From NCBI GenBank assembly GCA_964016885.1, contig OZ024759.1, positions 4,154,001-4,218,000 of the forward strand: a stretch of DNA of 64,000 bases, read 5' to 3'. The notes under the pieces were generated by a model that made no database searches, was not told the DNA's origin, and was given only the letters and a program-made list of their open reading frames with translations. The position numbers and the translations under genes are program-made. This document shows, piece by piece, positions 5,935 to 63,396 of the stretch. Position 1 is the first letter of the stretch; each line of letters starts with the position of its first letter. This DNA comes from Eledone cirrhosa (taxonomy: Eukaryota).

Positions 5935-6072
5935 CTGACTGACAGTTGTCTCCCCTGAAACCAGCTGCACATCCAACACTAGAACACACCCCAGATTTAA
6001 TGTCGCAATGATCGTTGTCAGCACAGTGGCACAAATACTGACAGTTCAAGCCAAAATAACCCTTTTTACATT
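5935..6072 (-). CDS. EGF-like exon, 138 nt
   Basis: CKKGYFGLNCQYLCHCADNDHCDIKSGVCSSVGCAAGFRGDNCQS; poly-T cag acceptor, gtgggt donor. Confidence 0.9.
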
Positions 6073-6199
6073 CTGAAAAAAAAAAAAAAAGAAAATAGAA
6101 TTATATACACAACATATATATAAAATTATACACAATAACACATATATACAATTATACACAGCTATAACATACATATACACAATTATACATAACTATAAT

Positions 6200-6550
6200 G
6201 CCAATGTGCGTGAATGACCAAGCATAGACGAGTTGAGAAAGAAACTGGGTATAAGAGGGATAAGTTGTGGTGTGTAGGAGAGAAGGCTGAGCTGAGATGG
6301 TATGGACATGTGATGCGCATGGAGGATGACCGCTGGGTAAAGAAGTGCCAAGAAATCCCAGTAGAAGGAAGACGCAGTAGAGGTAGACCATGAAAAACAT
6401 GGGCGGAGGTGGTGAGAGAAGACCTCAAATTGCTGAAACTCACGGAGGAGATGACAAGGGACCGTGACGAATGAAGAGATGCCATGCTTAATAAGACCCG
6501 TCCCACCCTTGCAAGCAGGGAAAAGCGGACGTAAAATGATGATGATGATG
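6200..6550 (+). mobile_element. RTE LINE 3' fragment
   Basis: WYGHVMRMEDDRWVKKC...GRP homology and (TGA)n tail. Confidence 0.8.
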
Positions 6551-7599
6551 ATAATAATAAAATTATTGTGTACAGTGCTCAGGTGCACTACAACTCATCA
6601 ATGGTGAATGTATAGTACATTAGTGAACAGACAGTGAACAGTGTATGAGTCATGAGATACACACAGACACATGCATGCGTGTGTATGGAGGGGGAATATC
6701 AGGTGTAGTGTTGGCGCAAAAAAAAAATAAAAGGAAATGCTTACAGCACCTAGGTTTCTCAAGTGGTTTCCCATCTAAGTACTAACTAGGCTCGAGTCAA
6801 GATATATGTGTGTGTGTGTATGTATGTATGGAGGGGGAATATTAGGTGCAAGGTTGGCGAATTTCAGGCAACATGGAGGTTTTAAAGGATGCAGTGTCCC
6901 GGCAGCTAACAACTGATGCAGGTAGTTTGTTCCATGCTTCAGTGAATTTCAGGAAGCATGGAGGTTTTAAAGGATGCAGTGTCCTGGCAGCACACAACTG
7001 ATGCGGGTAGTTTGTTCCATACTTCAGCAAATTTTTATATATATTGATTGACCAACAGTTAAAAAATATAAATATAAATATAGTTTCTCAGAGTTTTTTC
7101 ATCACATATCTGTGACATCATCAGTGATATTTCTATGCTTGTCATATTCCTGTGATGTTTTCTTATTCTATTTTATTTATTTGCAGTAGTTCCAACGTAA
7201 AAGACTTTCATAATAGTTGATCACTATAAATAACAGTTAGGAAAACCAGATAAAGTACATGTGGAGATAGAAAGAAGTAGACGGAGGGTCCTGTAAGGAA
7301 CAGGTGCAAGTTTGCTTCCTTGCAAATACTTCTGTCTACATCTACCTTTCTCCTGAGATACTTTACTACCCACATTAACCTGTCACCTGTGGTCCATTAC
7401 TGTCTACCAGGAATAATAATTGTTTCTACTTTAGGCACAAGGTCAGAAATTATCCAAGTGTATTACTGGTACTTTATTTTATCGACCCCGTAAGGATGAA
7501 AGGCAAAGTTAACTTCGGTGGGATTTGAACTCAGATTGTAAAGGGACATAACTATGCTGGAAAGCACGGCATCCGACTCTCTACCGATACTGCCATAAT

Positions 7600-8372
7600 A
7601 CAGTTATACTAGTTAGAAGTAGAAATAAAAGACTATTAAACATATGTAGTCATTAATAATATAGTTATACTAGTTAGTAGTAAAAGTAAAAGAGTAATAC
7701 ACCTATGTAGCCATTAATAATATAGTTATACTAGTTAGTAGTAAAAGTAAAAGAGTAATAAACCTATGTAGTCATTAATAATATAGTTATACTAGTTAGT
7801 AGTAAAAGTAAAAGAGTAATAAACCTATGTAGTCATTAATAATATAGTTATACTAGTTAGTAGTAAAAGTAATAGAGTAATAAACCTATGTAGTCATTAA
7901 TAATATAGTTATACTAGTTAGTAGTAAAAGTAAAAGAGTATTAAACATATGTAGTCATTAATAATATAGTTATACTAGTTAGTAGTAAAAGTAAAAGAGT
8001 ATTAAACATATGTAGTCATTAATAATATAGTTATACTAGTTAGTAGTAAAAGTGAAAGAGTAATACACCTATGTAGTCATTAATAATTTAGTTATACTAG
8101 TTAGTAGTAAAAGTGAAAGAGTAATACACCTATGTAGCCATTAATAATATAGTTATACTAGTTAGTAGTAAAAGTAAAAGAGTAATAAACCTATGTAGAC
8201 ATTAATAATATAGTTATACTAGTTAGTAGTAAACGTAAAAGAGTAATAAACATATGTAGACATTAATAATATAGTTATACTAGTTAGTAGTAAAAGTAAA
8301 AGAGTAATAAACATATGTAGACATTAATAATATAGTTATACTAGTTAGTAGTAAACGTAAAAGAGTATTAAA
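7600..8372. repeat. 61-bp AT-rich minisatellite, ~12 copies
   Basis: taataatatagttatactagttagtagtaaaagtaaaagagtaataaacctatgtagtcat. Confidence 0.92.
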
Positions 8373-8377
8373 CCAAC

Positions 8378-8515
8378 CAGTTTGACAATCAGTTCCTATA
8401 TAGCCTGGTTCACAGTTGCCCTCTTCACAAACACCATTGGTTCTGTTGCAGTATTTACTTTCTTCACAATGACAAACCTTTTGACAGTTAGACCCAAAAG
8501 TATTGCTTGGACAGA
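8378..8515 (-). CDS. EGF-like exon, 138 nt
   Basis: CPSNTFGSNCQKVCHCEESKYCNRTNGVCEEGNCEPGYIGTDCQT; atccag acceptor, gttggt donor. Confidence 0.88.
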
Positions 8516-8749
8516 CTGGATGAAATAAAGGATCAAACAGAAATTTAGTAAATTTAACCCTTTAGCATTTACATTACTTTATATATATATACTATTGTAT
8601 TTTTACAGTAAACACTTTATCACATATTATGGAGTCTAGGAGATTTTGATGATGATATTATTTATTTTGAGAAGAATACCTTAATGTCAGTATTGGTGAC
8701 CGGTTATTGAAAGAAGTCAATATATAACCCTTTAGCATTTACATTACTC

Positions 8750-12360: not shown

Positions 12361-12408
12361 CACGCTGTTAATAAATGAACATTTACAGTTTAAAATAAGC
12401 ATACTAAC

Positions 12409-12546
12409 AAGCTTGGCAGTCATGACCAGTAAAACCAGGTAGACACTTGTTGTTTGGACAGTGTCCAGTTTTAGGGTTACAGTTTGCACTGTCCTTGCAT
12501 TTACAGGGATTTGAACAATGGACACCAAAATAACCAGCTTTACACA
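12409..12546 (-). CDS. EGF-like exon, 138 nt
   Basis: CKAGYFGVHCSNPCKCKDSANCNPKTGHCPNNKCLPGFTGHDCQA; taacag acceptor, gttagt donor. Confidence 0.88.
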
Positions 12547-15506: not shown

Positions 15507-15644
15507 CATTTTGGCAGTTTCTTCCTTCAAAACCAGCAACACATCTTCCGTCAGAACATATTCCTGTCACTGAGTCACATTTGTTGCTGTCTACACAGTG
15601 ACATATACCTTCACAGTTGCTGCCAAATCTACCATTCTGGCAGA
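15507..15644 (-). CDS. EGF-like exon, 138 nt
   Basis: CQNGRFGSNCEGICHCVDSNKCDSVTGICSDGRCVAGFEGRNCQN; aag acceptor, gtgagt donor. Confidence 0.88.
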
Positions 15645-15929: not shown

Positions 15930-16067
15930 CTGTTTGACAGTTGTTACCTTTATAGCCAGGTGTACACCCACCACTCGAACAGGTACCAGATTTAGGGTTA
16001 CACGTGCTATTGTCATAGCAGTGACAGCTATAGCTACAATCTTTACCAAACTTGCCACTGGAGCACT
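15930..16067 (-). CDS. EGF-like exon, 138 nt
   Basis: CSSGKFGKDCSYSCHCYDNSTCNPKSGTCSSGGCTPGYKGNNCQT; tttcag acceptor, gtgagt donor. Confidence 0.9.
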
Positions 16068-17670: not shown

Positions 17671-17808
17671 CTGTCTGACAATTGCTACCTTGATAGCCAG
17701 CTTCACAGCCACCACTGGAACATACACCTGTGATGGGGTCACACTTGCTGTTGTTGGCACAGTGACATGAGTTAATACAGTTGTCACCAAATTTACCACT
17801 TCTACACT
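17671..17808 (-). CDS. EGF-like exon, 138 nt
   Basis: CRSGKFGDNCINSCHCANNSKCDPITGVCSSGGCEAGYQGSNCQT; acccag acceptor, gtgagt donor. Confidence 0.9.
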
Positions 17809-18958: not shown

Positions 18959-19096
18959 TTAACTGACAATTGTTACCCTCATATCTAGCAATACAACCCC
19001 CACTTGAACAGGTCCCTGATACTGGGGTACACTTGCTGTTGTCTGTACAGTGACATATACTGCTGCACTTGGCACCAAACCTTCCATATTGACGAA
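18959..19096 (-). CDS. EGF-like exon, 138 nt (first Cys replaced by Arg)
   Basis: RQYGRFGAKCSSICHCTDNSKCTPVSGTCSSGGCIARYEGNNCQL; ccatag acceptor, gtaagt donor. Confidence 0.82.
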   Translation of the reverse strand, partial: FVNMEGLVPSAAVYVTVQTTASVPQYQGPVQVGVVLLDMRVTIVS

Positions 19097-21264: not shown

Positions 21265-21402
21265 CTGTCTGACAGTTGCTACCTTCATAACCAGCAGCAC
21301 ATCCGCCACTAAAATACACACCTGTCTGTTTGTTACACCTGTTGTTGTCAGTACAGTGACAGATGCTTTCGCAGTTGGGTCCAAATTTACCAATATCACA
21401 AA
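21265..21402 (-). CDS. EGF-like exon, 138 nt (6th Cys replaced by Tyr)
   Basis: CDIGKFGPNCESICHCTDNNRCNKQTGVYFSGGCAAGYEGSNCQT; gtttag acceptor, gtaagt donor. Confidence 0.8.
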
Positions 21403-26902: not shown

Positions 26903-27040
26903 CTTTCTGACAACTGTTTCCTTCATAACCTGGAGCACATCTACCCCTTGAACAGATCCCTAATTCCACATTACACCTGTTGTTATCTTCACAATGACAC
27001 ACCTGATCACAGTTGGCACCAAGTCTTCCACTACTGCACA
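26903..27040 (-). CDS. EGF-like exon, 138 nt
   Basis: CSSGRLGANCDQVCHCEDNNRCNVELGICSRGRCAPGYEGNSCQK; ttacag acceptor, gttagt donor. Confidence 0.9.
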
Positions 27041-28987: not shown

Positions 28988-29125
28988 CTGTCTGACAGTT
29001 GCTACCTTCATAACCAGCAGCACATCCGCCACTAGAACACACACCTGTCTGTTTGTTACACCTGCTGTTATCTGCACAGTGACATGTATATTTACAGTTG
29101 GGTCCAAATTTACCTGTTTTACACC
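28988..29125 (-). CDS. EGF-like exon, 138 nt
   Basis: CKTGKFGPNCKYTCHCADNSRCNKQTGVCSSGGCAAGYEGSNCQT; tttcag acceptor, gtaagt donor. Confidence 0.87.
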
Positions 29126-29500: not shown

Positions 29501-29512
29501 TACACCACTTAC

Positions 29513-29649
29513 CTGTCTGACAGTTGCTACCTTCATAACCAGCAGCACATCCTCCACTGGAACACACACCTGTCTGTTTGTTACACCTGTTGTTGTCAGC
29601 ACAGTGACAAATATTGCCATAGTTGGGCCAAATTTACCTGTTTTACACC
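29513..29649 (-). pseudogene. EGF-like exon copy, 137 nt (frameshift and Cys>Tyr)
   Basis: TTT GG- CCC AAC TAT versus TTT GGA CCC AAC TGT in sister exons; splice sites intact. Confidence 0.7.
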
Positions 29650-29901: not shown

Positions 29902-30021
29902 CTGTCTGACAGTTGCTACCTTCATAACCAGCAGCACATCCTCCACTGGAACACACACCTGCTGTTGTCAGAACAGTGACATGTGTTGCCACAGTTGGGT
30001 CCAATTTACCTGTTTTACACC
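29902..30021 (-). pseudogene. EGF-like exon copy, 120 nt (1-nt plus 17-nt deletions; frame restored, several Cys lost)
   Basis: Splice sites intact; reads CKTGKLDPTVATHVTVLTTAGVCSSGGCAAGYEGSNCQT. Confidence 0.7.
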
Positions 30022-30430: not shown

Positions 30431-30743
30431 TCCAATAAATTAGTCATCCCCATTTTTCCTCAACACATGATCCAGCATATCCTTTCATTTCTCTTCATAA
30501 ATATTATTGACACTATTTACATCAATCTCTGCAAAATATTGATTTCCTGCCTCTTTCATGGGGATATTTCACCGGACCATTCTCATTTCAAGTCTCCTCT
30601 GCTTTCTCTGTTGTTCCATCTTCATCAATCATGTCTCACTCTTAAAAATAATGTCACTTCTAACACATGTAGCATACATTTTTCCCTTCCATGTGATGTC
30701 TCAATATATTAAGTTAGAAACCAAGCTATACTACACCACTTAC

Positions 30744-32365
30744 CTGTCTGACAGTTTCTATCTTCATAACCAGCACCACACCTGTCTGACAGTTGCTACC
30801 TTCATAACCAGCACCACACCTGTCTGACAGTTGCTACCTTCATAACCAGCACCACACCTGTCTGACAGTTGTTACCTTTATAACCAGCACCACACCTGTC
30901 TGACAGTTGTTACCTTCATAACCAGCACCACACCTGTCTGACAGTTGTTACCTTTATAACCAGCACCACACCTGTCTGACAGTTGTTACCTTCATAACCA
31001 GCACCACACCTGTCTGACAGTTGCTACCTTCATAACCAGCACCACACCTGTCTGACAGTTGTTACCTTCATAACCAGCACCACACCTGTCTGACAGTTGT
31101 TACCTTCATAACCAGCACCACACCTGTCTGACAGTTGTTACCTTCATAACCAGCACCACACCTGTCTGACAGTTGTTACCTTCATAACCAGCACCACACC
31201 TGTCTGACAGTTGCTACCTTCATAACCAGCACCACACCTGTCTGACAGTTGTTACCTTCATAACCAGCACCACACCTGTCTGACAGTTGCTACCTTCATA
31301 ACCAGCACCACACCTGTCTGACAGTTGTTACCTTTATAACCAGCACCACACCTGTCTGACAGTTGTTACCTTCATAACCAGCACCACACCTGTCTGACAG
31401 TTGCTACCTTCATAACCAGCACCACACCTGTCTGACAGTTGTTACCTTCATAACCAGCACCACACCTGTCTGACAGTTGTTACCTTTATAACCAGCACCA
31501 CACCTGTCTGACAGTTGTTACCTTCATAACCAGCACCACACCTGTCTGACAGTTGCTACCTTCATAACCAGCACCACACCTGTCTGACAGTTGTTACCTT
31601 TATAACCAGCACCACACCTGTCTGACAGTTGTTACCTTCATAACCAGCACCACACCTGTCTGACAGTTGCTACCTTCATAACCAGCACCACACCTGTCTG
31701 ACAGTTGTTACCTTCATAACCAGCACCACACCTGTCTGACAGTTGTTACCTTTATAACCAGCACCACACCTGTCTGACAGTTGTTACCTTCATAACCAGC
31801 ACCACACCTGTCTGACAGTTGCTACCTTCATAACCAGCACCACACCTGTCTGACAGTTGTTACCTTTATAACCAGCACCACACCTGTCTGACAGTTGTTA
31901 CCTTCATAACCAGCACCACACCTGTCTGACAGTTGCTACCTTCATAACCAGCACCACACCTGTCTGACAGCTGATACCTTCATAACCAGCACCACACCTG
32001 TCTGACAGTTGTTACCTTTATAACCAGCACCACACCTGTCTGACAGTTGCTACCTTCATAACCAGCACCACACCTGTCTGACAGTTGTTACCTTTATAAC
32101 CAGCACCACACCTGTCTGACAGTTGCTACCTTCATAACCAGCACCACACCTGTCTGACAGTTGCTATCTTCATAACCAGCACCACACCTGTCTGACAGCT
32201 GATACCTTTATAACAAGCACCACACCTCCACTACAACACACACCTGTCTGACAGCTGATACCTTTATAACTAGCACCACACCTCCACTACAACACACACC
32301 TGTCTGACAGTTGATACCTTTATAACAAGCATCACACCTCCATTACAACACCCACCTGTCTGACA
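30744..32365. repeat. 38-bp tandem array (~39 copies) plus a few 57-bp units, derived from the EGF exon 3' end
   Basis: cctgtctgacagttgYtaccttYataaccagcaccaca; the array ends at a retained GTAAGT donor (GT at 30743-30742). Confidence 0.95.
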
Positions 32366-33928: not shown

Positions 33929-34066
33929 CTGTCTGACAGTTGCCACCTTCATATCCAGGAGCACATCCTCCATTAGAGCAGCTACCAGTCTGTGGCTTAC
34001 ATTTACTCTTGTCAGCACAATGACACATGTTTCGACAGTTTGGTCCAAATTTTCCTCTCTTACATC
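33929..34066 (-). CDS. EGF-like exon, 138 nt
   Basis: CKRGKFGPNCRNMCHCADKSKCKPQTGSCSNGGCAPGYEGGNCQT; ttgtag acceptor, gtaagt donor. Confidence 0.9.
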
Positions 34067-38400: not shown

Positions 38401-41400
38401 TGCTACCTTATAACCAGGACCACACCATCTACTGTAACACACCTGTCTGATAGATGATACCTTATAACCAGGACCACACCATCTACTGTAACACACATGT
38501 CTGACAGGTGCTACCTTATAACCAGGACCACATCATCTACTGTAACACACCTGTCTGATAGATGATACCTTATAAACAGGACCACACCATCTACTGTAAC
38601 ACACCTGTCTGACAGGTGCTACCTTATAACCAGGATCACACCATCTACTGTAACACACCTGTCTGACAGCTGCTACCATATAACCAGTACCACACCATCT
38701 ACTGGAACACACGTGTCTGACAGCTGCTACCTTATAACCAGGACCACACCATCTACTGTAACACACCTGTCTGACAGCTGCTACCTTATAACCAGGACCA
38801 CACCATCTACTGGAACACACCTGTCTGACAGGTGCTACCTTATAACCAGGACCACACCATCTACTGTAACACACCTGTCTGATAGATGATACCTTATAAC
38901 CAGGACCACACCATCTACTGGAACACACCTGTCTGACAGGTGCTACCTTATAACCAGGACCACACCATCTACTGTAACACACCTGTCTGATAGATGATAC
39001 CTTATAACCAGGACCACACCATCTACTGTAACACACATGTCTGATAGCTGCTGCCATATAACCAGGACCACACCATCTACTGTAACACACCTGTCTGATA
39101 GATGATACCTTATAACCAGGACCACACCATCTACTGTAACACACCTGTCTGACAGGTGCTACATTATAACCAGGACCACACCATCTACTGTAACACACCT
39201 GTCTGACAGGTGCTACCTTATAACCAGGACCACACCTTCTACTGTAACACACCTGTCTGACAGGTGCTACCTTATAACCAGGACCACACCATCTACTGTA
39301 ACACACCTGTCTGACAGGTGCTACCTTATAACCAGGACCACACCTTCTACTGTAACACACCTGTCTGACAGGTGCTACCTTATAACCAGGACCACACCAT
39401 CTACTGTAACACACCTGTCTGACAGGTGCTACCTTATAACCAGGACCACACCATCTACTGTAACACACATGTCTGATAGCTGCTACCTTATAACCAGGAC
39501 CACACCATCTACTGTAACACACCTGTCTGACAGCTGCTACCATATAACCAGGACCACACCATCTACTGTAACACACCTGTCTGATAGATGATACCTTATA
39601 ACCAGGACCACACCATCTACTGTAACACACCTGTCTGACAGGTGCTACCTTATAACCAGGACCACACCTTCTACTGTAACACACCTGTCTGACAGGTGCT
39701 ACCTTATAACGAGGACCACACCATCTACTGTAACTGACCTATCTGACAGGTGCTACCTTATAACCAGGACCACACCTTCTACTGTAACACACCTGTCTGA
39801 CAGGTGCTACCTTATAACCAGGACCACACCATCTTCTGTAACACACCTGTCTGACAGCTGCTACCATATAACCAGGACCACACCATCTAATGTAACACAC
39901 CTGTCTGATAGCTCCTACCTTATAACCAGGACCACACTATCTACTGTAACACACTTGTCTGACAGGTGCTACCTTATAACCAGGACCACACCATCTACTG
40001 TAACACACCTGTCTGATAGATGATACCTTATAACCAGGACCACACCATCTACTGGAACACACCTGTCTGACAGGTGCTACCTTATAACCAGGACCACACC
40101 ATCTACTGTAACACACCTGTCTGATAGATGATACCTTATAACCAGGACCACACCATCTACTGTAACACACATGTCTGACAGGTGCTACCTTATAACCAGG
40201 ACCACATCATCTACTGTAACACACCTGTCTGATAGATGATACCTTATAAACAGGACCACACCATCTACTGTAACACACCTGTCTGACAGGTGCTACCTTA
40301 TAACCAGGATCACACCATCTACTGTAACACACCTGTCTGACAGCTGCTACCATATAACCAGTACCACACCATCTACTGGAACACACGTGTCTGACAGGTG
40401 CTACCTTATAACCAGGACCACACCATCTACTGTAACACACCTGTCTGACAGCTGCTAACTTATAACCAGGACCACACCATCTACTTGAACACACCTGTCT
40501 GACAGGTGCTACCTTATAACCAGGACCACACCATCTACTGTAACACACCTGTCTGATAGATGATACCTTATAACCAGGACCACACCATCTACTGGAACAC
40601 ACCTGTCTGACAGGTACTACCTTATAACCAGGACCACACCATCTACTGTAACACACCTGTCTGATAGATGATACCTTATAACCAGGACCACACCATCTAC
40701 TGTAACACACATGTCTGATAGCTGCTACCATATAACCAGGACCACACCATCTACTGTAACACACCTGTCTGATAGATGATACCTTATAACCAGGACCACA
40801 CCATCTACTGTAACACACCTGTCTGACAGGTGCTACCTTATAACCAGGACCACACCATCTACTGTAACACACCTGTCTGACAGGTGCTACCTTATAACCA
40901 GGACCACACCTTCTACTGTAACACACCTGTCTGACAGGTGCTACCTTATAACCAGGACCACACCATCTACTGTAACACACCTGTCTGACAGGTGCTACCT
41001 TATAACCAGGACCACACCTTCTACTGTAACACACCTGTCTGACAGGTGCTACCTTATAACCAGGACCACACCATCTACTGTAACACACCTGTCTGACAGG
41101 TGCTACCTTATAACCAGGACCACACCATCTACTGTAACACACATGTCTGATAGCTGCTACCTTATAACCAGGACCACACCATCTACTGTAACACACCTGT
41201 CTGACAGCTGCTACCATATAACCAGGACCACACCATCTACTGTAACACACCTGTCTGATAGATGATACCTTATAACCAGGACAACACCATCTACTGTAAC
41301 ACACCTGTCTGACAGGTGCTACCTTATAACCAGGACCACACCTTCTACTGTAACACACCTGTCTGACAGGTGCTACCTTATAACCAGGACCACACCATCT

Positions 41401-44400
41401 ACTGTAACACACCTATCTGACAGGGGCTACCTTATAACCAGGACCACACCTTCTACTGTAACACACCTGTCTGACAGGTGCTACCTTATAACCAGGACCA
41501 CACCATCTACTGTAACACACCTGTCTGACAGCTGCTACCATATAACCAGGACCACACCATCTACTGTAACACACCTGTCTGACAGCTTCTACCTTATAAC
41601 CAGGACCACACCATCTACTGTAACACACCTGTCTGACAGCTCCTACCTTATAACCAGGACCACACTATCTACTGTAACACACTTGTCTGATAGCTGCTAC
41701 CCTATAACCAGGACCACACCATCTACTGTAACACACCTGTCTGACAGGTGATACCTTATAACCAGGACCACGCCATCTACTGTAACACACCTGTCTGACA
41801 GCTGCTACCTTATAACCAGGACCACACCATCTACTGTAACACACCTGTCACCTTATAACCAGGACCACACCATCTACTGTAACACACCTGTCTGACAGGT
41901 GCTACCTTATAACCAGGACCACACCATCTACTGTAACACACTTATCTGACAGGTGCTACCTATTAACCAGGACCACACCATCTACTGTAACACACCTGTC
42001 TGACAGGTGCTACCTTATAACCAGGACCACACCATCTACTGTAACACACCTGTCTGATAGATGATACCTTATAACCAGGACCACACCATCTACTGTAACA
42101 CACCTGTCTGACAGGTGCTACCTTATAACCAGGACCACACCATCTACTGTAACACACCTGTCTGATAGATGATACCTTATAACCAGGACCACACCATCTA
42201 CTGTAACACACCTGTCTGATAGATGATACCTTATAACCAGGACCACACCATCTACTGTAACACACCTGTCTGATAGATGATACCCTATAACCAGGACCAC
42301 ACCATCTACTGTAACACACCTGTCTGACAGGTGCTACCTTATAACCAGGACCACACCATCTACTGTAACACACCTGTCTGATAGATGATACCTTATAACC
42401 AGGACCACACCATCTACTGGAACACACCTGTCTCACAGGTGCTACCTTATAACCAGGACCACACCATCTACTGTAACACACCTGTCTGACAGGTGCTACC
42501 TTATAACCAGGACCACACCATCTACTGTAACACACCTGTCTGACAGGTGCTACCTTATAACCAGGATCACACCATCTACTGTAACACACCTGTCTGACAG
42601 GTGCTACCTTATAACCAGGACCACACCATCTACTGTAACACACCTGTCTGATAGATGATAATTTATAACCAGGACCACACCATCTACTGTAACACACCTG
42701 TCTGACAGGTGCTACCTTATAACCAGGACCACACCATCTACTGTAACACACCTGTCTGACAGGTGCTACCTTATAACCAGGACCACACCTTCTACTGTAA
42801 CACACCTGTCTGACAGGTGCTACCTTATAACCAGGACCACACCATCTACTGTAACACACCTGTCTGACAGGTGCTACCTTATAACCAGGACCACACCATC
42901 TACTGTAACACACATGTCTGATAGATGATACCTTATAACCAGGACCACACCATCTACTGTAACACACCTGTCTGACAGCTGCTACCATACAACCAGGACC
43001 ACACCATCTACTGTAACACACCTGTCTGATAGATGATACCTTATAACCAGGACCACACCATCTACTGTAACACACCTGTCTGACAGGTGCTACCTTATAA
43101 CCAGGACCACACCATCTACTGTAACACACCTATCTGACAGGTGCTACCTTATAACCAAGACCACACCTTCTACTGTAACACACCTGTCTGACAGGTGCTA
43201 CCTTATAACCAGGACCACACCATCTACTGTAACACACCTGTCTGACAGCTGCTACCATATAACCAGGACCACACCATCTACTGTAACACACCTGTCTGAC
43301 AGCTGCTACCTTATAACCAGGACCACACCATCTACTGTAACACACCTGTCTGACAGCTCCTACCTTATAACCAGGACCACACTATCTACTGTAACACACT
43401 TGTCTGATAGCTGCTACCTTATAACCAGGACCACACCATCTACTGTAACACACCTGTCTGACAGGTGATACCTTATAACCAGGACCACACCATCTACTGT
43501 AACACACCTGTCTGACAGCTGCTACCTTATAACCAGGACCACACCATCTACTGTAACACACCTGTCTGACAGCCGCTACCTTATAACCAGGACCACACCA
43601 TCTACTGTAACACACCTGTCTGACAGGTGCTACCTTATAACCAGGACCACACCATCTACTGTAACACACCTGTCTGACAGGTGCTAACTTATAACCAGGA
43701 CCACACCATCTACTGTAACACACTTATCTGACAGGTGCTACCTATTAACCAGGACCACACCATCTACTGTAACACACCTGTCTGACAGGTGCTACCTTAT
43801 AACCAGGACCACACCATCTACTGTAACACACCTGTCTGATAGATGATACCTTATAACCAGGACCACACCATCTACTGTAACACACCTGTCTGACAGGTGC
43901 TACCTTATAACCAGGACCACACCATCTACTGTAACACACCTGTCTGACAGCTGCTACCTTATAACGAGGACCACACCATCTACTGTAACACACCTCTCTG
44001 ACAGGTGCTACCATATAACCAGGACCACACCATCTACTGTAACACACCTGTCTGATAGATGATACCTTATAACCAGGACCACACCATCTACTGTAACACA
44101 CCTGTCTGACAGGTGCTACCTTATAACCAGGACCACACCATCTACTGTAACACACCTGTCTGATAGATGATACCTTATAACCAGGACCACACCATCTACT
44201 GTAACACACCTGTCTGATAGATGATACCTTATAACCAGGACCACACCATCTACTGTAACACACCTGTCTGATAGATGATACCCTATAACCAGGACCACAC
44301 CATCTACTGTAACACACCTGTCTGACAGGTGCTACCTTATAACCAGGACCACACCATCTACTGTAACACACCTGTCTGATAGATGATACCTTATAACCAG

Positions 44401-47400
44401 GACCACACCATCTACTGGAACACACCTGTCTCACAGGTGCTACCTTATAACCAGGACCACACCATCTACTGTAACACACCTGTCTGACAGGTGCTACCTT
44501 ATAACCAGGACCACACCATCTACTGTAACACACCTGTCTGACAGGTGCTACCTTATAACCAGGATCACACCATCTACTGTAACACACCTGTCTGACAGGT
44601 GCTACCTTATAACCAGGACCACACCATCTACTGTAACACACCTGTCTGATAGATGATACCTTATAACCAGGACCACACCATCTACTGTAACACACCTGTC
44701 TGACAGGTGCTACCTTATAACCAGGACCACACCATCTACTGTAACACACCTGTCTGACAGGTGCTACCTTATAACCAGGACCACACCTTCTACTGTAACA
44801 CACCTGTCTGACAGGTGCTACCTTATAACCAGGACCACACCATCTACTGTAACACACCTGTCTGACAGGTGCTACCTTATAACCAGGACCACACCATCTA
44901 CTGTAACACACATGTCTGATAGATGATACCTTATAACCAGGACCACACCATCTACTGTAACACACCTGTCTGACAGCTGCTACCATACAACCAGGACCAC
45001 ACCATCTACTGTAACACACCTGTCTGATAGATGATACCTTATAACCAGGACCACACCATCTACTGTAACACACCTGTCTGACAGGTGCTACCTTATAACC
45101 AGGACCACACCATCTACTGTAACACACCTATCTGACAGGTGCTACCTTATAACCAAGACCACACCTTCTACTGTAACACACCTGTCTGACAGGTGCTACC
45201 TTATAACCAGGACCACACCATCTACTGTAACACACCTGTCTGACAGCTGCTACCATATAACCAGGACCACACCATCTACTGTAACACACCTGTCTGACAG
45301 CTGCTACCTTATAACCAGGACCACACCATCTACTGTAACACACCTGTCTGACAGCTCCTACCTTATAACCAGGACCACACTATCTACTGTAACACACTTG
45401 TCTGATAGCTGCTACCTTATAACCAGGACCACACCATCTACTGTAACACACCTGTCTGACAGGTGATACCTTATAACCAGGACCACACCATCTACTGTAA
45501 CACACCTGTCTGACAGCTGCTACCTTATAACCAGGACCACACCATCTACTGTAACACACCTGTCTGACAGCTGCTACCTTATAACCAGGACCACACCATC
45601 TACTGTAACACACCTGTCTGACAGGTGCTACCTTATAACCAGGACCACACCATCTACTGTAACACACCTGTCTGACAGGTGCTAACTTATAACCAGGACC
45701 ACACCATCTACTGTAACACACTTATCTGACAGGTGCTACCTATTAACCAGGACCACACCATCTACTGTAACACACCTGTCTGACAGGTGCTACCTTATAA
45801 CCAGGACCACACCATCTACTGTAACACACCTGTCTGATAGATGATACCTTATAACCAGGACCACACCATCTACTGTAACACACCTGTCTGACAGGTGCTA
45901 CCTTATAACCAGGACCACACCATCTACTGTAACACACCTGTCTGACAGCTGCTACCTTATAACGAGGACCACACCATCTACTGTAACACACCTCTCTGAC
46001 AGGTGCTACCATATAACCAGGACCACACCATCTACTGTAACAGACCTGTCTGATAGATGATAACTTATAACCAGGACCACACCATCTACTGTAACACACC
46101 TGTCTGATAGATGATACCTTATAACCAGGACCACACCATCTACTGTAACACACCTGTCTGACAGGTGCTACCTTATAACCAGGACCACACCATCTACTGT
46201 AACACACCTGTCTGATAGATGATACCTTATAACCAGGACCACACCATCTACTGTAACACACCTGTCTGATAGATGATACCTTATAACCAGGACCACACCA
46301 TCTACTGTAACACACCTGTCTGATAGATGATACCCTATAACCAGGACCACACCATCTACTGTAACACACCTGTCTGACAGGTGCTACCTTATAACCAGGA
46401 CCACACCATCTACTGTAACACACCTGTCTGATAGATGATACCTTATAACCAGGACCACACCATCTACTGGAACACACCTGTCTCACAGGTGCTACCTTAT
46501 AACCAGGACCACACCATCTACTGTAACACACCTGTCTGACAGGTGCTACCTTATAACCAGGACCACACCATCTACTGTAACACACCTGTCTGACAGGTGC
46601 TACCTTATAACCAGGATCACACCATCTACTGTAACACACCTGTCTGACAGGTGCTACCTTATAACCAGGACCACACCATCTACTGTAACACACCTGTCTG
46701 ATAGATGATACCTTATAACCAGGACCACACCATCTACTGTAACACACCTGTCTGACAGCTGCTACCTTATAACCAGGACCACACCATCTACTGTAACACA
46801 CCTGTCTGATAGATGATACCTTATAACCAGGAACACACCATCTACTGTAACACACCTGTCTGATAGATGATACCCTATAACCAGGACCACACCATCTACT
46901 GTAACACACCTGTCTGACAGGTGCTACCTTATAACCAGGACCACACCATCTACTGTAACACACCTGTCTGATAGATGATACCTTATAACCAGGACCACAC
47001 CATCTACTGGAACACACCTGTCTCACAGGTGCTACCTTATAACCAGGACCACACCATCTACTGTAACACACCTGTCTGACAGGTGCTACCTTATAACCAG
47101 GACCACACCATCTACTGTAACACACCTGTCTGACAGGTGCTACCTTATAACCAGGATCACACCATCTACTGTAACACACCTGTCTGAGAGGTGCTACCTT
47201 ATAACCAGGACCACACCATCTACTGTAACACACCTGTCTGATAGATGATACCTTATAACCAGGACCACACCATCTACTGTAACACACCTGTCTGACAGCT
47301 GCTACCTTATAACCAGGACCACACCATCTACTGTAACACACCTGTCTGATAGATGATACCTTATAACCAGGAACACACCTTCCACTGGAACACACACCTG
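35411..47400. repeat. 54-bp satellite, ~220 copies (~12 kb), derived from the EGF exon 3' half
   Basis: acacacctgtctgacaggtgctaccttataaccaggaccacaccatctactgta. Confidence 0.97.
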
Positions 47401-47477
47401 TCTCTGTCTTACACCTGTCTCTGTGTTACACCTACTATCATCTTGACTAAATATATTAAGTAACAAACAAAGCTTAC

Positions 47478-47615
47478 CTGTCTGACAGTTGCTACTTTCA
47501 TAACCAGCAGTACATCCTCCTCTAGAACACACACCTGTCTGTTTGTTACATTTACTGTTGTCAGCACAGTAACATGTGTTGCCACAGTTGGCTCCAAATT
47601 TTCCATTTCTACAGA
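47478..47615 (-). CDS. EGF-like exon, 138 nt
   Basis: CRNGKFGANCGNTCYCADNSKCNKQTGVCSRGGCTAGYESSNCQT; ccacag acceptor, gtaagc donor. Confidence 0.85.
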
Positions 47616-49030: not shown

Positions 49031-49168
49031 CTGTCTGACAGTTGCTACCTTCATAACCAGCAGTACATCCTCCACTAGAACACACACCTGTCTGTTTGTA
49101 ACACCTGTTATTATCAGCACAGTGGCATGTGTGTTTACAGTTAGCTCCAAATTTACCAATGTCACAGG
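49031..49168 (-). CDS. EGF-like exon, 138 nt
   Basis: CDIGKFGANCKHTCHCADNNRCYKQTGVCSSGGCTAGYEGSNCQT; ttacag acceptor, gtaagt donor. Confidence 0.87.
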
Positions 49169-50760: not shown

Positions 50761-50898
50761 CTGTCTGACAGTTGCTACCTTCATAACCAGCAGCACATCC
50801 TCCACTAGAACACACACCTGTCTGTTTGTTACATTTACTGTTGTCAACACAGTGACATGTGTTGCCACAGTTGGCTCCAAATTTACCTGATTTACAGA
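50761..50898 (-). CDS. EGF-like exon, 138 nt (weak donor GTATAT)
   Basis: CKSGKFGANCGNTCHCVDNSKCNKQTGVCSSGGCAAGYEGSNCQT; ttccag acceptor. Confidence 0.75.
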
Positions 50899-52869: not shown

Positions 52870-53235
52870 ATCTATACTATAGTGATATCAACTATTTTAT
52901 ATCTATATCATCTGTACTATATCCCTACAACCTATATTATATCTATAGCTATACTATATCTATTCCTCTATATTATATCTATTGAAGGTGCAAGGATTAG
53001 TGGTAAGAGCGTCAGGCTTACAATCATAAAGTTGTGAGTTTGATGCCTGAATCTTGCTGTGTTTTGTGTTCTTGAACAAGTCACTTTATTTCATGTTGCT
53101 CAAGATACTCTGCTATAGAAATGAGTTGTGATGTCACACTTTCAATAGGAACACACACCTGTCTCTAAGTTACACCTGCTGTTGTTTTGTTTCAATATAT
53201 TATGCTACAACAAAGTTATGCTACATCACTTACCT

Positions 53236-56200
53236 TATTAGAAATATGGTAATGAAAGGGTTAATGACATAGACAGTGTCTTTCATTAGAAATATGGTAA
53301 TGAAAGGGTTAATGACATAGACAGTGTCTTTCATTAGATATATGGTAATGAAGGGGTTAATGACATAGACAGTGTCTTTCATTAGATATATGGTAATGCA
53401 GGGGTTAATAACATAGGTAGTGTCTTTCATTAGATATATGGTAATGAAAGGGTTAATGACATAGACAGTGTCTTTTATTAGATATATGGTAATGAAGGGG
53501 TTAATGACATAGACAGTGTCTTTCATTAGATATATGGTTATGAAAGGGTTAATGACATAGGTAGTGTCTTTCATTAGAAATATGGTAATGAAAGGGTTAA
53601 TGACATAGACAGTGTCTTTCATTAGATATATGGTAATGAAGGGGTTAATGACATAGACGGTGTCTTTCATTAGATATATGGTAATGCAGGGGTTAATAAC
53701 ATAGGTAGTGTCTTTCATTAGATATATGGTAATGAAAGGGTTAATGACATAGACAGTGTCTTTTATTAGATATATGGTAATGAAGGGGTTAATGACATAG
53801 ACAGTGTCTTTCATTAGATATATGGTAATGAAAGGGTTAATGACATAGACAGTGTCTTTCATTAGATATATGGTAATGAAGGGGTTAATGACATAGACAG
53901 TGTCTTTCATTAGATATATGGTAATGCAGGGGTTAATAACATAGGTAGTGTCTTTCATTAGAAATATGGTAATGAAAGGGTTAATGACATAGACAGTGTC
54001 TTTCATTAGAAATATGATAATGAAAGGGTTAATGACATATAGTGTCTTTCATTAGAAATATGGTAATGAAAGGGTTAATGACATAGACAGTGTCTTTCAT
54101 TAGATATATGGTAATGCAGGGGTTAATAACATAGGTAGTGTCTTTCATTAGAAATATGGTAATGAAAGGGTTAATGACATAGACAGTGTCTTTCATTAGA
54201 AATATGATAATGAAAGGGTTAATGACATATAGTGTCTTTCATTAGAAATATGGTAATGAAAGGGTTAATGACATAGACAGTGTCTTTCATTAGATATATG
54301 GTAATGCAGGGGTTAATAACATAGGTAGTGTCTTTCATTAGATATATGGTAATGAAAGGGTTAATGACATAGACAGTGTCTTTTATTAGAAATATGATAA
54401 TGAAAGGGTTAATGACATATAGTGTCTTTCATTAGAAATATGGTAATGAAAGGGTTAATGACATAGACAGTGTCTTTCATTAGATATATGGTAATGAAGG
54501 GGTTAATGACATAGACAGTGTCTTTCATTAGATATATGGTAATGAAAGGGTTAATGACATAGACAGTGTCTTTCATTAGATATATGGTAATGAAGGGGTT
54601 AATGACATAGACAGTGTCTTTCATTAGATATATGGTAATGCAGGGGTTAATAACATAGGTAGTGTCTTTCATTAGAAATATGGTAATGAAAGGGTTAATG
54701 ACATAGGCAGTGTCTTTCATTAGAAATATGATAATGAAAGGGTTAATGACATATAGTGTCTTTCATTAGAAATATGGTAATGAAAGGGTTAATGACATAG
54801 ACAGTGTCTTTCATTAGATATATGGTAATGCAGGGGTTAATAACATAGGTAGTGTCTTTCATTAGATATATGGTAATGAAAGGGTTAATGACATAGACAG
54901 TGTCTTTTATTAGAAATATGGTAATGAAAGGGTTAATGATATAGACAGTGTCTTTCACTAGATATATGGTAATGAAGGGGTTAATGACATAGACAGTGTC
55001 TTTCATTAGAAATATGGTAATGAAAGGGTTAATGACATAGGTAGTGTCTTTAATTAGAAATATAGTAATGAAAGGGTTAATGACATAGACAGTGTCTTTT
55101 ATTAGAAATATGATAATGAAAGGGTTAATGATATAGACAGTGTCTTTCACTAGATATATGGTAATGAAGGGGTTAATGACATAGACAGTGTCTTTCATTA
55201 GAAATATGGTAATGAAAGGGTTAATGACATAGGTAGTGTCTTTAATTAGAAATATAGTAATGAAAGGGTTAATGACATAGACAGTGTCTTTCATTAGAAA
55301 TATGGTAAGGAAAGGGTTAATGACATAGGTAATGTCTTTAATTAGAAATATAGTAATGAAAGGGTTAATGACATAGACAGTGTCTTTCATTAGAAATATG
55401 GTAATGAAAGGGTTAATGACATAGACAGTGTCTTTCATTAGAAATATGGTAATGAAAGGGTTAATGACATAGGTAATGTCTTTAATTAGAAATATAGTAA
55501 TGAAAGGGTTAATGACATAGACAGTGTCTTTCATTAGAAATATGGTAAGGAAAGAGTTAATGACATAGACAGTGTCTTTCATTAGATATATGGTAATGAA
55601 AGGGTTAATGACATAGACAGTGTCTTTCATTAGAAATATGGTAATGAAAGGGTTAATGACATAGACAGTGTCTTTCATTAGAAATATGGTAATGAAAGTG
55701 TTAATGACATATACAGTGTCTTTCATTAGAAATATGGTAATGAAAGGGTTAATGACATAGACAGTGTCTTTCATTAGAAATATGGTAATGAAAGGGTTAA
55801 TGACATAGACAGTGTCTTTCATTAGAAATATGGTAATGAAAGGGTTAATGACATAGGTAATGTCTTTAATTAGAAATATAGTAATGAAAGGGTTAATGAC
55901 ATAGACAGTGTCTTTCATTAGAAATATGGTAAGGAAAGAGTTAATGACAGACAGTGTCTTTCATTAGATATATGGTAATGAAAGGGTTAATGACATAGAC
56001 AGTGTCTTTCATTAGAAATATGGTAATGAAAGGGTTAATGACATAGACAGTGTCTTTCATTAGAAATATGGTAATGAAAGGGTTAATGACATATACAGTG
56101 TCTTTCATTAGAAATATGGTAATGAAAGGGTTAATGACATAGACAGTGTCTTTTATTAGAAATATGGTAATGAAAGGGTTAATGATATAGACAGTGTCTT

Positions 56201-57860: not shown

Positions 57861-58130
57861 GTTTAATTACTATACTGACAGTTGCTACCTTCATAACCAG
57901 CAGCACATCCTCCACTAGAACATACACCTGTCTCTATGTTACACCTGATGTTGTTTTGTTTCAATATATTAAGCTACAGACTAAGCTATACTACACAACA
58001 CACTTCATTGGAACACACACCTGTCTCTGTGTTACATCTCGCTGTTTGTTACACGTCTCTGTATGTTACACCTGCTGTTGTCTTGACCCACTATATTAAG
58101 TTATAAACAAAGCTATACTACACCACTTAC

Positions 58131-58268
58131 CTGTCTGACAGTTGCTACCTTCATAACCAGCAGTACATCCTCCACTAGAACACACACCTGTCTGTTTGTT
58201 ACATTTACTGTTGTCAACACAGTGACATGTGTTGCCACAGTTGGCTCCAAATATACCATTTCTACAGA
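58131..58268 (-). CDS. EGF-like exon, 138 nt
   Basis: CRNGIFGANCGNTCHCVDNSKCNKQTGVCSSGGCTAGYEGSNCQT; ccacag acceptor, gtaagt donor. Confidence 0.87.
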
Positions 58269-58959: not shown

Positions 58960-59152
58960 TCTTCATAACCAGCACCACACCCTCTACTGTAACACACCTG
59001 TCTTACAGTTGCTATCTTCATAACCATCACCACACACTTCACTGGAACACACACCTGTCTCTGTGTTACATCTAGCTGTTTGTTACACCTGCTGTTGTTA
59101 GTACAGTGACATGTGTGTTTACAGTTAGGTCCAAATTTACCTGCTTTACACC
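58960..59152 (-). pseudogene. Degenerate EGF-like exon copy
   Basis: Acceptor ttttcag|GG, then CKAGKFGPNCKHTCHCTNNSRCNKQ, a 17-nt frameshifting duplication and a partly duplicated 3' half; no canonical donor at the expected position. Confidence 0.7.
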
Positions 59153-59315: not shown

Positions 59316-59452
59316 CTGTCTGACAGTTGCTACCTTCATAACCAGCAGCACATCCTCCACTAGAACACACACCTGTCTCTTTGTTACACCTGCTGTTATC
59401 AGCACAGTGACATGTGTATTTACAGTTGGGTCCAAATTTACCTGTTTACAGA
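59316..59452 (-). pseudogene. EGF-like exon copy, 137 nt (1-nt deletion in an A run, frameshift)
   Basis: Splice sites intact, but TGT AAA CAG GTA instead of TGT AAA ACA GGT. The deletion is in a homopolymer, so it may be a sequencing error. Confidence 0.65.
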
Positions 59453-59544
59453 CTGTGGGTATAAAATATGAGAACAATGACAATTACAGCAACATATAAC
59501 ACTATACAAGATAATAAATATCATAATTATATCATCTATATATA

Positions 59545-59880: not shown

Positions 59881-60128
59881 TAACCCATGCTGGTGTGGAA
59901 GATGTACGTTATACGAAGATGATGATGATATAGTGTTGTCATCTATCATCTATACTATATCTCTACAACCTATATGATATCTATATCCTATATATTATAT
60001 CTATATCATCTGTATTATATCTATATCATCATAACCAGCATCACACCTGTCTCTGTCTGTTTTTTTACACCTGCTGTTGTTTTGTTTCATATATCAAGTT
60101 AGAAACAAATCTGTACTACAGTACTTAC

Positions 60129-60266
60129 CTGTTTGACAGTTGCTACCTTCATAACCAGCAGCACATCCTCCACCTGAACACACACCTGTCTCTTTGTTAC
60201 ACCTGCTGTTATCTGCGCAGTGACATGTGTATTTACAGTTGGCTCCAAATTTACCTGTTTTACAGA
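60129..60266 (-). CDS. EGF-like exon, 138 nt
   Basis: ttttcag|TC, encodes CKTGKFGANCKYTCHCADNSRCNKETGVCSGGGCAAGYEGSNCQT, donor gtaagt. Confidence 0.88.
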
Positions 60267-60482
60267 CTGAAAATAAAAATATGGAAGTCTAAATATATTT
60301 AATAATTCACATTAATTTCTGATATTTTCATATTTTACATGGTAGACATTATTTGAATTTTGAAAATGTGAGACCAGAGAAATTGCTTCATGTGACACTG
60401 TAAGAAAACATTAAAGAAAACATTAAAAAAATGAAATGTATATCTTCTTCTTTATCATTAAGAATGTCAGCAGCAGCAGCAC

Positions 60483-60514: not shown

Positions 60515-61050
60515 CAGAGAGAGAGAGAGAGAGAGAAGAGAGAGAGTAGTTAATAATAAATACAAAGACCAAAATCTAGAGAGGGCTCAATAAGATAAGA
60601 GTTTTATGTATATGTATATATATACATATATATGTATCATCATCATCATCATCATCATTTTACGTCCACTTTTCCCTGGTTGCGAGGGTGGGACGGAAAC
60701 TGATTCTGGCTTGATTTCTACAGCTGGATGCCCTTCCTACCACCAACCTTATTTACAGTGAGTGCTGGGTGCTTTTTTGCTGTGGCACCTCCACGACCAC
60801 TTTGCAGTGGAATGATAGGGACCGCAATCCCTATCATCTCATTTCTACAGCTGAGTAAACTGGAGCAATGTGAAATAAAGTGTCTTGCTCAAGGAAACAA
60901 CACATCACCCGGTTTGAGAATTGAACTCACAACCTTTCGATTGCAAGGCCAATGCTCTAACCACTAAGCCATAGAGAGAGAGAGAAGTGAGAGAGTAGTT
61001 AATAATAAATAGAAACACCAAAATCTGGAGAGGGCTCAATAAGATAAGAG

Positions 61051-61099
<49 letters not shown>

Positions 61100-61102
<3 letters not shown>

Positions 61103-62974
61103 TCAATACATAAACAGAGAAAGCCTTAAGCGATACTCTGACCAACACCATCTCACTCAACAAACATTAGGATATACCTAAGTATTATCCCAATTTAGTG
61201 TTTGGGGTGCTAACTAATCAGTATTTCGTGGATAGCTGGTTGTATTATTTTATATGAGACATTATTAAATAAATATCTCTTTCCCTCCAGACGGCCGTTT
61301 CATTATAAGATTTCTACAATTTGGAATAAATAATTTCCAGGTTATGTAGAAACTTGTATATAATCCATAGTTTTATACACAAGTGGGCTCTTATAAACTC
61401 ATCAGTGGATGCCCAAATAATATCGATATAAGAATTATATCGACATTAATAGATTAGTGATGGTCTCCCTCAACGCTAAGAAGAGACTGGTAGTTCAGAA
61501 AATCCAGCAGTCCTCTCAAAGATAAAATACACGCTGTACCCAAAAGGGTAAAGGGAGGTCATCTTAAAATAAACCAATATACACGCTGGTCATTTAAACC
61601 TGTTAGGTATTAACCACATGTATAAGAACTCAATTGGATAGTAAAAGAATAACTATATGTATACACAACCAATGCACACATAGAGATAACACATAATAAA
61701 TACATGTATGGATCCCCCATATACACACACAGCCACTCTCTAAGGCTAAATCAGACATGGGATACAAGGAAGATCAATCAGTATTTCATATAAAAAATAA
61801 TAATAATAAAGTGCAGGGTGATAAAAATTAACGGTAGCCACGGAGCAGGCAGACTCAGAAAAACCTGGGATGACTTGATAAATTCCGACCTCACACCTCT
61901 CCAAGACAATGTCACTGGACCGAGATCTTTGGCGCCACACAGAAGACCCGCCTTGCCTAAGTACAAAGCGAAACCTACAGTCAGTAGGCACCTCTAACAA
62001 AATACACCCCTGTCCCACTACCCCACCCCATCCACACCACCCCCTTAAATGTGAAGTTATGTTGGTACCACAACATCCAGTCCGAAACAAATGAGGTTGT
62101 GTAGGTGTCACAACAGAAAAAACACACAGTCCACGCTGTAATGTGGCCGTGTAGGTAACACGGTAAAAACCTCCCAGTCCACACTGTAAACGTGGTTGGT
62201 GTTAGGAAGGGCATCCAGCCATAGAAAACTTGCCAGTCAGTCCTATACGAGCAGGACAACGAATATTGCCTCAAGTGGGAAAACTCCCGTCCAAACCCAT
62301 GCAAGCGTGGAAGATGGACGTTAAACGATGATAATGATGATGATGATGATGATGAAAGAGAGTCATACCTTATATCTGGAAATCATATCTGGCCACCAAG
62401 AGTATATATTCAATACATAAACAGAGAAAGCCTTAAGCGATACTCTGACCAACTCCATCTCACTCAACAAACATTAGGATATACCTAAGTATTTTCCTAA
62501 TTTAGTGTTTGGGGTGCTAACTAATCAGTATTTCGTGGATAGCTGGTTGTATTATTTTATATGAGACATTATTAACTAAATATCTCTTTCCTTCCAGACG
62601 GCCGTTTCCTTATAAGATTTCTACAATTCGGGATAAATAATTTCCAGGTTATGTAGAAACTTGTATATAATCCATAGTTTTATACACAAGCGGGCTCTTA
62701 TAAACTCATCAGTGGATGTCCAAATAATATCGATATAAGAATTATATCGACATTAATAGATTAGTGATGGTCTCCCTCAGCGCTAAGAAGATCCAGCGCT
62801 TAGAAAATCCAGCAGTCCTCTCAAAGATAAAATACACGCTGTCCCCAAGAGGGTAAGGGGAGGTCATCTTAAAATAAAACAATATACACGCTGGTCATTT
62901 AAACCTGTTAGCTATTAACCACGTGTATAAGAACTCAATTGGATATTAAAAGAATAACTATATGTATACACAAT

Positions 62975-62975
<1 letters not shown>
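61100..62975. repeat. Two ~570-bp direct repeats (~61100-61675 and ~62408-62975); a diverged inverted copy at 1-430
   Basis: caatacataaacagagaaagccttaagcgatactctgacc...aagaataactatatgtatacacaa occurs twice. Confidence 0.85.
61830..62355 (+). mobile_element. RTE LINE 3' fragment
   Basis: GAGRLRKTWDDLINSDL..DRDLWR plus a 3' UTR like 10930-11232; (TGA)n tail. Confidence 0.78.
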
Positions 62976-63036
<61 letters not shown>

Positions 63037-63258
63037 CAAATATTTCAAATATTTCAGATCAGTGGTTGGCGTTGGGAAGGGCATCCAGCCGTAAAAAAAC
63101 AGTCAGAAACTCTCGTATATGAGCGAGACATGGTCACTTGACCCAACATGCCTCTAAATGGGACAACCCTGTCTAACCCATGCTAGCATGGAAGATAGAC
63201 GTTAATTGATGATGATGATGATACATACATATATATATAGCTACATTACACCACTTAC

Positions 63259-63396
63259 CTGTCTGACAGTTGCTACCTTCATAACCAGCAGTACACCCTC
63301 CACTGTAACACACACCTGTCTCTGTGTTACATTTGCTGTTGTCTGCACAGTGACAATTTCTACTACAGCTGGGACCAAACTTTCCTACAGGACACA
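63259..63396 (-). CDS. EGF-like exon, 138 nt
   Basis: ttctatag|TG TGT CCT..., encodes CPVGKFGPSCSRNCHCADNSKCNTETGVCYSGGCTAGYEGSNCQT, donor G|gtaagt. Confidence 0.88.

Follow-up and report, generated by a model that had tools for sequence, protein, structure and literature searches.

We analysed a 64,000-nucleotide (nt) stretch of the Eledone cirrhosa genome (assembly GCA_964016885.1, contig OZ024759.1, positions 4,154,001 to 4,218,000; hereafter the window, numbered from its first letter), which carries on its minus strand an array of 21 near-full copies of an EGF-module exon, running from 63396 to 5935. This array is probably the stalk of one mollusc scavenger-receptor-like (MEGF/SREC-type) membrane protein, in which the number of units changes by exon duplication and loss. 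Exon birth and death, proposed in a first-pass annotation of the stretch, is supported by a young 5' clade, old 3' copies and remnants of lost copies. Local duplication and microhomology-driven decay suffice to explain the broken copies, without a regulated programme, and a dedicated Dscam-like combinatorial recognition system is not supported by the sequence.

Anatomy and age of the exon array

A six-frame motif scan and a DNA profile seeded with 15 exons located all copies, and each copy was then checked individually. Chance is excluded for the full copies (nhmmer E 1e-15 to 1e-42), given that the 15 seed exons fit the profile by construction and the remaining 6 are independent. Seventeen of the 21 copies are exactly 138 nt long and in phase 1-1, as first annotated, and they are also flanked by AG and GT and free of stops. 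Each 138-nt exon corresponds to 45 whole codons and eight cysteines (Cys), except for two exons with seven Cys. The four off-length copies measure 137, 155, 120 and 137 nt. Two further copies were lost and persist as orphan donors with a young-clade flank (GT at 53233 and 30743). The earlier count of at least 22 copies therefore holds if remnants are included (23 in total) and fails for near-full copies (21). Introns range from 163 to 13,411 nt. Symmetric phase 1-1, being what EGF-module exons usually show, is no sign of a cassette system. The window is rich in AT and holds TA microsatellites as well as dispersed repeats, together with two fragments of long interspersed nuclear elements (LINEs) matching reverse transcriptase. 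Behind most young exons, at a distance of 50-60 nt downstream, lies a partial copy of the exon, here called a shadow. The members and remnants of the array are:

63259..63396, minus: E01, intact 138-nt exon, first EGF exon of the window
60129..60266, minus: E02, intact, inside a 324-nt, 95% inverted repeat pair (59554-59877 / 60649-60972)
60027..60080, minus: intronic shadow behind E02, partial copy of the exon 3' part
59316..59452, minus: E03x, 137 nt, 1-nt deletion near the 5' end, without other private change
58998..59152, minus: E04x, 155 nt, 5' half of the exon joined to an intronic shadow, without the true donor
58131..58268, minus: E05, intact, K5I in the window; 58255 has another letter in public runs X2, X3 and X4 (see below)
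57875..58086, minus: two intronic shadows behind E05
53135..53236, minus: GT at 53233 as orphan donor, with a shadow and the flank of the young clade; a 48-nt satellite stands in place of the missing exon body
50761..50898, minus: E06, intact
49031..49168, minus: E07, intact, shadow at 48881-48964
47478..47615, minus: E08, 138 nt, with H15Y, S31R and G40S
35413..47433, minus: E08 shadow grown to 222 copies of a 54-nt minisatellite unit that stems from exon nt about 84-138
33929..34066, minus: E09, intact
30742..32369, minus: exon remnant, 56-nt and 38-nt minisatellites from the exon 3' end, GTAAGT donor 30743 at the end, 5' half absent
29902..30021, minus: E10d, 120 nt, 1-nt and 17-nt deletions, net in frame, 4 Cys
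29513..29649, minus: E11x, 137 nt, 1-nt deletion and C10Y, perfect splice sites
28988..29125, minus: E12, intact
26903..27040, minus: E13, intact, diverged
21265..21402, minus: E14, 138 nt, C29Y; shadow at 20974-21207 with 17-nt and 57-nt repeats
18959..19096, minus: E15, 138 nt, C1R and G37R
17671..17808, minus: E16, intact
15930..16067, minus: E17, intact
15507..15644, minus: E18, intact
12409..12546, minus: E19, intact, most diverged, weak donor (6/9)
8378..8515, minus: E20, intact, weak donor (6/9)
5935..6072, minus: E21, intact, last EGF exon of the window

The array is polar, with young and similar copies at the 5' end and old, diverged copies at the 3' end. The young group comprises E01-E12 and E14, whose intact members share 73-96% DNA identity, and the old group E13 and E15-E21, with a mutual DNA identity of 46-70%. 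The unit of duplication is the exon with 50-150 nt of flank. Along their length the exons show a patchwork of similarity, which suggests gene conversion, the formal recombination test being a weak one (P = 0.31 with nine exons, 0.037 with eleven).

The intact copies are kept by purifying selection. The 17 exons of 138 nt retain 134 of 136 Cys and none has a stop. Pooled pairwise ratios of nonsynonymous to synonymous substitution (dN/dS), whose underlying pairs are mutually non-independent, are 0.43 for 7 core young exons, 0.41 for 9 young and 0.29 for 8 old exons. Framework positions show 6 changes in the 138-nt exons vs. about 103 expected by neutral simulation, a comparison that is circular in part for seven non-Cys columns, as the columns were partly picked from the same alignment. 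Three of the 138-nt copies, namely E08 (G40S), E14 (C29Y) and E15 (C1R and G37R), may be decaying, given their changes at conserved positions.

Breakage of copies and the repeats of the window

The broken copies had been described as interleaved among intact ones. They are instead two closely spaced, related pairs of one young sub-lineage, not scattered: the four copies stand in two adjacent pairs, with introns of 163 and 252 nt between the members, and homology between the pairs extends into the flanks (29852-30037 with 59253-59470; 29511-29761 with 58996-59264). The two frameshifted copies at 59316-59452 (E03x) and 29513-29649 (E11x) do have the intact splice sites first attributed to them, with perfect donors (CAG/GTAAGT, 9/9) and acceptors like those of intact copies. 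The E03x deletion lies in or beside an A run, and an alternative CAG acceptor at +11 restores its frame with loss of the first Cys; for E11x, no frame-restoring acceptor was found. With perfect sites and no such acceptor, E11x would have to be left out of the mRNA, be truncated at an in-frame donor within it, or cost the transcripts that include it. In E04x, the GTAAGT donor is gone and the private changes are 7 nonsynonymous and 0 synonymous. Its 3' part aligns better to four shadows (scores 112-155) than to five exons (87-109), and E04x is therefore an exon fused to its own shadow; for lack of a donor it would drop out of the mRNA.

A short repeated word accompanies these lesions. E12 carries CAGGT at exon nt 12, 64, 81 and 138. 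The word is present at both nt 12 and nt 63-64 in six copies, including all four broken ones, and the other 15 copies are all on-length; since the six share ancestry, this association is suggestive only. The spacing from 64 to 81 (17 nt) equals the size of the E10d deletion and of a repeat unit in the shadows, and that from 81 to 138 (57 nt) equals the repeat unit behind E14. The satellite units of 56, 54 and 38 nt derive from the 57-nt unit and align to the exon 3' end. From these coincidences we infer that slippage or unequal exchange between CAGGT words made the 17-nt deletion of E10d, the E04x fusion and the 57-, 56-, 54- and 38-nt minisatellites.

The largest of these minisatellites, derived from the E08 shadow, covers about 12 kb (35413-47395, 222 x 54 nt) and contains 185 ACAG/GTGTG words; it holds no CAG/GTRAG donor and no pyrimidine-rich acceptor. 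Among 149 scored units, 30 distinct variants were seen, the commonest 49 times. An integrase match on the frame of the 54-mer was a repeat artefact with no passing stretch. The long open reading frames of the window were also rejected as exons of the EGF gene, being LINE fragments or satellite frames.

Public DNA contigs bear on whether the broken copies are real. Words of 28960-30100 were present in four of the seven listed runs, three of them from one sample (X1-X3; shares 0.83, 0.73 and 0.67) and one from a second study (X4; 0.04). The contig comparison covered 57870-60420 in X1-X4, E10d and E11x lying outside this interval. In X1-X3, E04x is gap-free in contigs at 59044-59157 and 58776-59072, with 45 and 68 letters flanking 59089 and 28 below 59072, and X4 matches 58912-59073 (the 3' half of E04x) exactly, at low depth. 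E04x is therefore real, and the suspicion that the broken exons were assembly errors falls for this copy. X2 and X3 contain a 125-nt contig at 59422-59545 that carries an extra base at 59444 and differs twice in the intron; the contig's next-best place in the window is 89% alike. It is most likely an intact allele of E03, possibly a copy from outside the window. This form is absent from the X1 rows, and no listed contig bridges the E03x deletion gap-free; E03x is either a polymorphic null or an assembly error. The copy variation foreseen in the first-pass annotation is thus borne out as likely allelic variation. At 58927 the public runs disagree with the window at full depth and may therefore derive from an animal other than the assembled one.

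It had also been claimed that a functional mRNA must skip exons. This stands for the assembled haplotype: all 21 copies joined in order give a stop in the fourth (E04x), and joining without the three frameshifted copies E03x, E04x and E11x leaves 821 open codons.

Other repeats fill the introns. A near-full LINE lies at 500-3300 on the minus strand (reverse transcriptase PF00078, E 7.6e-31; endonuclease-like region by eye), with stops and frameshifts. The second LINE fragment, at 8754-10927 on the plus strand between E19 and E20, combines reverse transcriptase with an inserted PHD-finger-like segment (PF00628, E 7.5e-6). Further intronic minisatellites occupy 22634-25972, 27914-28938, 49444-50745, 51036-52218, 53237-57853, 21474-22406, 17851-18605, 7595-8374 and 11821-12367, with units of 45, 60, 48, 31, 51, 16, 61 and 20 nt. 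The 45-nt array has a stop-free frame of 1150 codons without Pfam match, and the 60-nt unit also occurs as a single copy behind E03x and behind the 30743 donor. In the E01-E02 intron, a direct duplication of about 500 nt was seen by eye (62480-62960 and 61110-61660). The element inverted around E02 (59554-59877 / 60649-60972; 324 nt, 95%) is a high-copy dispersed one with a third copy at 48515-48853. Pairing of the outer copy with either partner would loop E02 alone or E02-E07, and these repeats are a possible RNA hairpin or editing substrate.

Protein identity and relatives

The best named homologue, Octopus sinensis XP_036365016.1, joins a fucolectin-type domain, EGF units, a transmembrane segment and a phosphatase. 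It is a paralogue, with units of 43-45 amino acids (aa) and 45-66% identity per unit. The same design recurs in many other top matches from bivalves and gastropods, and amphioxus proteins with other tails are also among the top matches. Draper, PEAR1 and SCARF1 proteins are among the profile matches, and the SCARF1 chain 8hna_B (E 3.6e-10, best of 2 solved-structure matches) agrees with the initial assignment to MEGF/SREC-type repeats. Single exons give weak matches to Pfam EGF_laminin and EGF_STAB1-2, with E from 1.5e-4 to 0.07, and most of these fall short of the cut-off. A fold search with a 45-residue model (predicted local distance difference test, pLDDT, 72.5) gave no significant match. 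In single-exon protein searches, E18 had no match and E12 matched amphioxus proteins only.

The array encodes the tandem 8-Cys laminin-type EGF-like repeats that characterize MEGF10, PEAR1, SCARF, Draper and CED-1, proteins which have an N-terminal EMI domain, a transmembrane segment and an NPxY/ITAM-like tail; the 5' and 3' ends of the Eledone gene, where such parts would be encoded, lie outside the window. It resembles SCARF1/SREC-I, MEGF10, PEAR1, Draper and CED-1 in Cys spacing; however, its unit is about 3 residues longer than in SCARF1, and scores are higher for mollusc and amphioxus receptors that have other tails than for the SCARF1/MEGF10 group. It also resembles mollusc MEGF/GBD-RPTP or scavenger class F-like receptors, with their long runs of 45-46-aa 8-Cys units in series, one exon each (the exon structure of these relatives being deduced from isoform differences). 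The mollusc receptors also show whole units absent from some isoforms and, in snails, reported EGF domain loss and copy-number instability. They are further marked by a galactose-binding/fucolectin domain, a single transmembrane helix and tandem phosphatase domains; lectin, transmembrane and phosphatase exons are absent from the window and may lie beyond it. In the array, at least 17 units follow each other uninterrupted, which sets it apart from the mollusc receptors.

Amphioxus arrays of 46-47-aa EGF units (named Branchiostoma matches, P0121, P0123 and P0127) show the highest per-unit identity (up to 72%) and up to 16 near-identical units in a row, so that the exon array has expanded there in a like manner. 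In contrast to the expected receptor, they sit on adhesion G-protein-coupled receptor (GPCR), fibrinogen, immunoglobulin (Ig) or kinase domains. The closeness to such a distant lineage may be partly convergent on a simple consensus. In P0121 (3791 aa), about 20 near-identical 47-aa EGF units precede Ig, GAIN and 7-transmembrane domains, an expanded module in an adhesion GPCR.

In snails, the Biomphalaria family consists of single-pass receptors of the scavenger class F-like type, some of which have fucolectin and phosphatase domains and some not, and whose genes lie in regions with copy-number variation, according to the accessible part of one report (PMC13712769). A second report, also available in part, describes EGF domain loss between haplotypes in a resistant snail (PMC12297450). 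For Aplysia, two MEGF10 orthologues appear in the accessible part of PMC9334734.

Splicing, rival explanations and meaning

We compared 20 RefSeq-type isoforms with the longest form of four MEGF-phosphatase models from oyster and zebra mussel (P0257, P0259, P0264 and P0275), two oyster models being possibly one gene in two assemblies. In 14 of the 20 isoforms, the difference consists of whole Cys-rich blocks only (1 to 6 units, at varied places), four of these 14 also having one additional unit; five others also lack N-terminal parts, and one differs by two residues. The skipped units are of 46 aa, and in Dreissena unit-skipping isoforms reach isoform X16. These RefSeq isoforms, which are automated models in which mis-mapping among similar exons is possible, indicate ordinary in-frame skipping rather than a one-of-many choice. 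As relatives are annotated with unit skipping, in-frame skipping is plausible at this array; by analogy it is likely, and would be ordinary for the receptor family.

We favour a stalk of 46-codon, 8-Cys EGF units whose number would be altered by local exon duplication and loss, with slippage or unequal exchange between CAGGT words as the putative source of the deletions, the fusion and the minisatellites. Under the laminin-type disulfide pairing that we assume for the unit (the Pfam match starts at residue 14), all four disulfides would fall inside one exon, so that gain or skipping of a unit would do no damage. A dead copy could then persist as a pseudoexon that some transcripts leave out, while those that include it would likely be degraded by nonsense-mediated decay. 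Alleles, and probably transcripts too, would differ in stalk length, like the oyster and mussel models. The recognition and signalling ends, predicted to comprise a fucolectin-type domain, a transmembrane segment and possibly phosphatase domains, would lie outside the window.

Several points weigh against this explanation, besides the limits stated above with the selection estimates, the recombination test, the CAGGT association and the isoform models. No orthologue was found among 256 homologues, the best having 28 of 45 residues identical, and the 72% identity found by BLAST is with an amphioxus protein. No fucolectin, transmembrane or phosphatase exon was found within the window, where the non-EGF parts of the 256 homologues matched only LINE sequence and one EGF remnant. 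The receptor type is thus deduced, the more so as amphioxus joins the same EGF unit to adhesion-GPCR, fibrinogen and kinase domains. The exclusion of E11x, as read from its splice sites, is not explained by plain loss of splice signals. In addition, nonsynonymous change is concentrated in codons 1-13 (proportion of nonsynonymous differences, pN, 0.198 vs. 0.073 and 0.052), and the trio E05/E06/E08 has a ratio of nonsynonymous to synonymous proportions (pN/pS) of 1.3-1.9 (5-8 nonsynonymous and 1-2 synonymous differences); both could reflect diversifying selection or recent relaxation.

Regulated combinatorial skipping, in which each animal or cell would make many ectodomain isoforms for recognition and dead copies would persist as optional, is unlikely. 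Every intact exon is symmetric, the strong sites on broken copies ask for some skipping, bivalve relatives have many annotated unit-skipping isoforms, and amino-acid variation is densest in codons 1-13. However, the young intact units are so alike in DNA (76-96% identity) that swaps would change little but length, and overall dN/dS is below 1. Inverted repeat pairs, which enclose 18 of the 21 copies, might bring exons into loops; these repeats, however, are dispersed high-copy elements found around intact and broken copies alike, without preference for the latter, and were rejected as a specific cause of skipping.

A bolder version of exon decay has an even smaller chance of being right. The exon would be self-destabilising, its four CAG/GT words serving as both recombination microhomologies and alternative splice sites; it would breed and kill its own copies, spawn the 12-kb minisatellite with its 185 donor-like words and force variable skipping. 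The ectodomain of a receptor for pathogen or self recognition would then vary between alleles and transcripts, with selection at codons 1-13.

A further possibility, which we consider distinctly improbable, is that the assembled haplotype, or the whole gene, died recently: transcripts would include the frameshifts and be destroyed, and the array would be a pseudogene at an early stage. Constitutive splicing does stop in E04x; there are six lesions or remnants, three 138-nt copies with conserved-site changes, intronic satellites and two LINE fragments, and protein database searches returned no protein from the locus. Against this, the 17 exons contain no stops, length lesions are limited to one sub-lineage, the old 3' exons are intact except E15, an intact E03 exists, and E04x is common to the organism of the second study while the exons next to it have remained open.

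The Dscam comparison of the first-pass annotation was not supported. As in Drosophila Dscam1, tandem homologous exons of equal length lie in one ectodomain gene. In Dscam1-type clusters, every exon is preceded by a shared selector element, and these elements pair with a single docking site. Here the best shared 8-mer in the interval from -170 to -25 precedes only 2 of 12 exons, vs. a mean of 3.9 for random windows; the 12 of the 21 copies were picked to avoid most flanks shared by descent, and only exact words were counted, so that degenerate selectors could be missed. One exon is picked per Dscam1 cluster, according to the accessible part of PMC12074976. In contrast, homologues of our array string 3-16 units in a row (five of six proteins scanned, the pattern having missed the sixth) instead of one per slot, and their isoforms skip units, mostly without exchange. 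Introns of such unequal length and symmetric phase would also permit double inclusion. A mutually exclusive cluster with one copy filling one slot is thus extremely unlikely. Equally remote is a plain constitutive gene in which all the broken copies are assembly errors: the lone 1-nt deletion of E03x at an A run, and the longer form in X2 and X3, would fit, but E04x is gap-free in X1-X3, E10d and E11x have two lesions each, and the contig with intact E03 has two intron differences besides, which is what a second haplotype would show; of the broken copies, only E03x may be such an error.

Database models of the family already show skipping and variation in unit number, and domain loss is in print. 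Open-licence papers yielded nothing on the locus, on unit skipping in mollusc MEGF proteins or on such exon-derived minisatellites. The locus adds an unusual exon-derived minisatellite and a putative sequence-level cause for the deaths of copies. Genes of this receptor family sit in snail loci tied to schistosome resistance, with EGF domain loss, and the accessible parts of the two reports do not describe the mechanism of unit-number change (PMC12297450, PMC13712769). In the Eledone locus, the birth of copies, their death in four different ways, a difference between alleles and satellites made from exon sequence can be seen together, all tied to a short repeated word. By itself the array reveals no new immune diversification system; it is a tractable test case for stalk variation in mollusc MEGF receptors by splicing as well as by DNA change.

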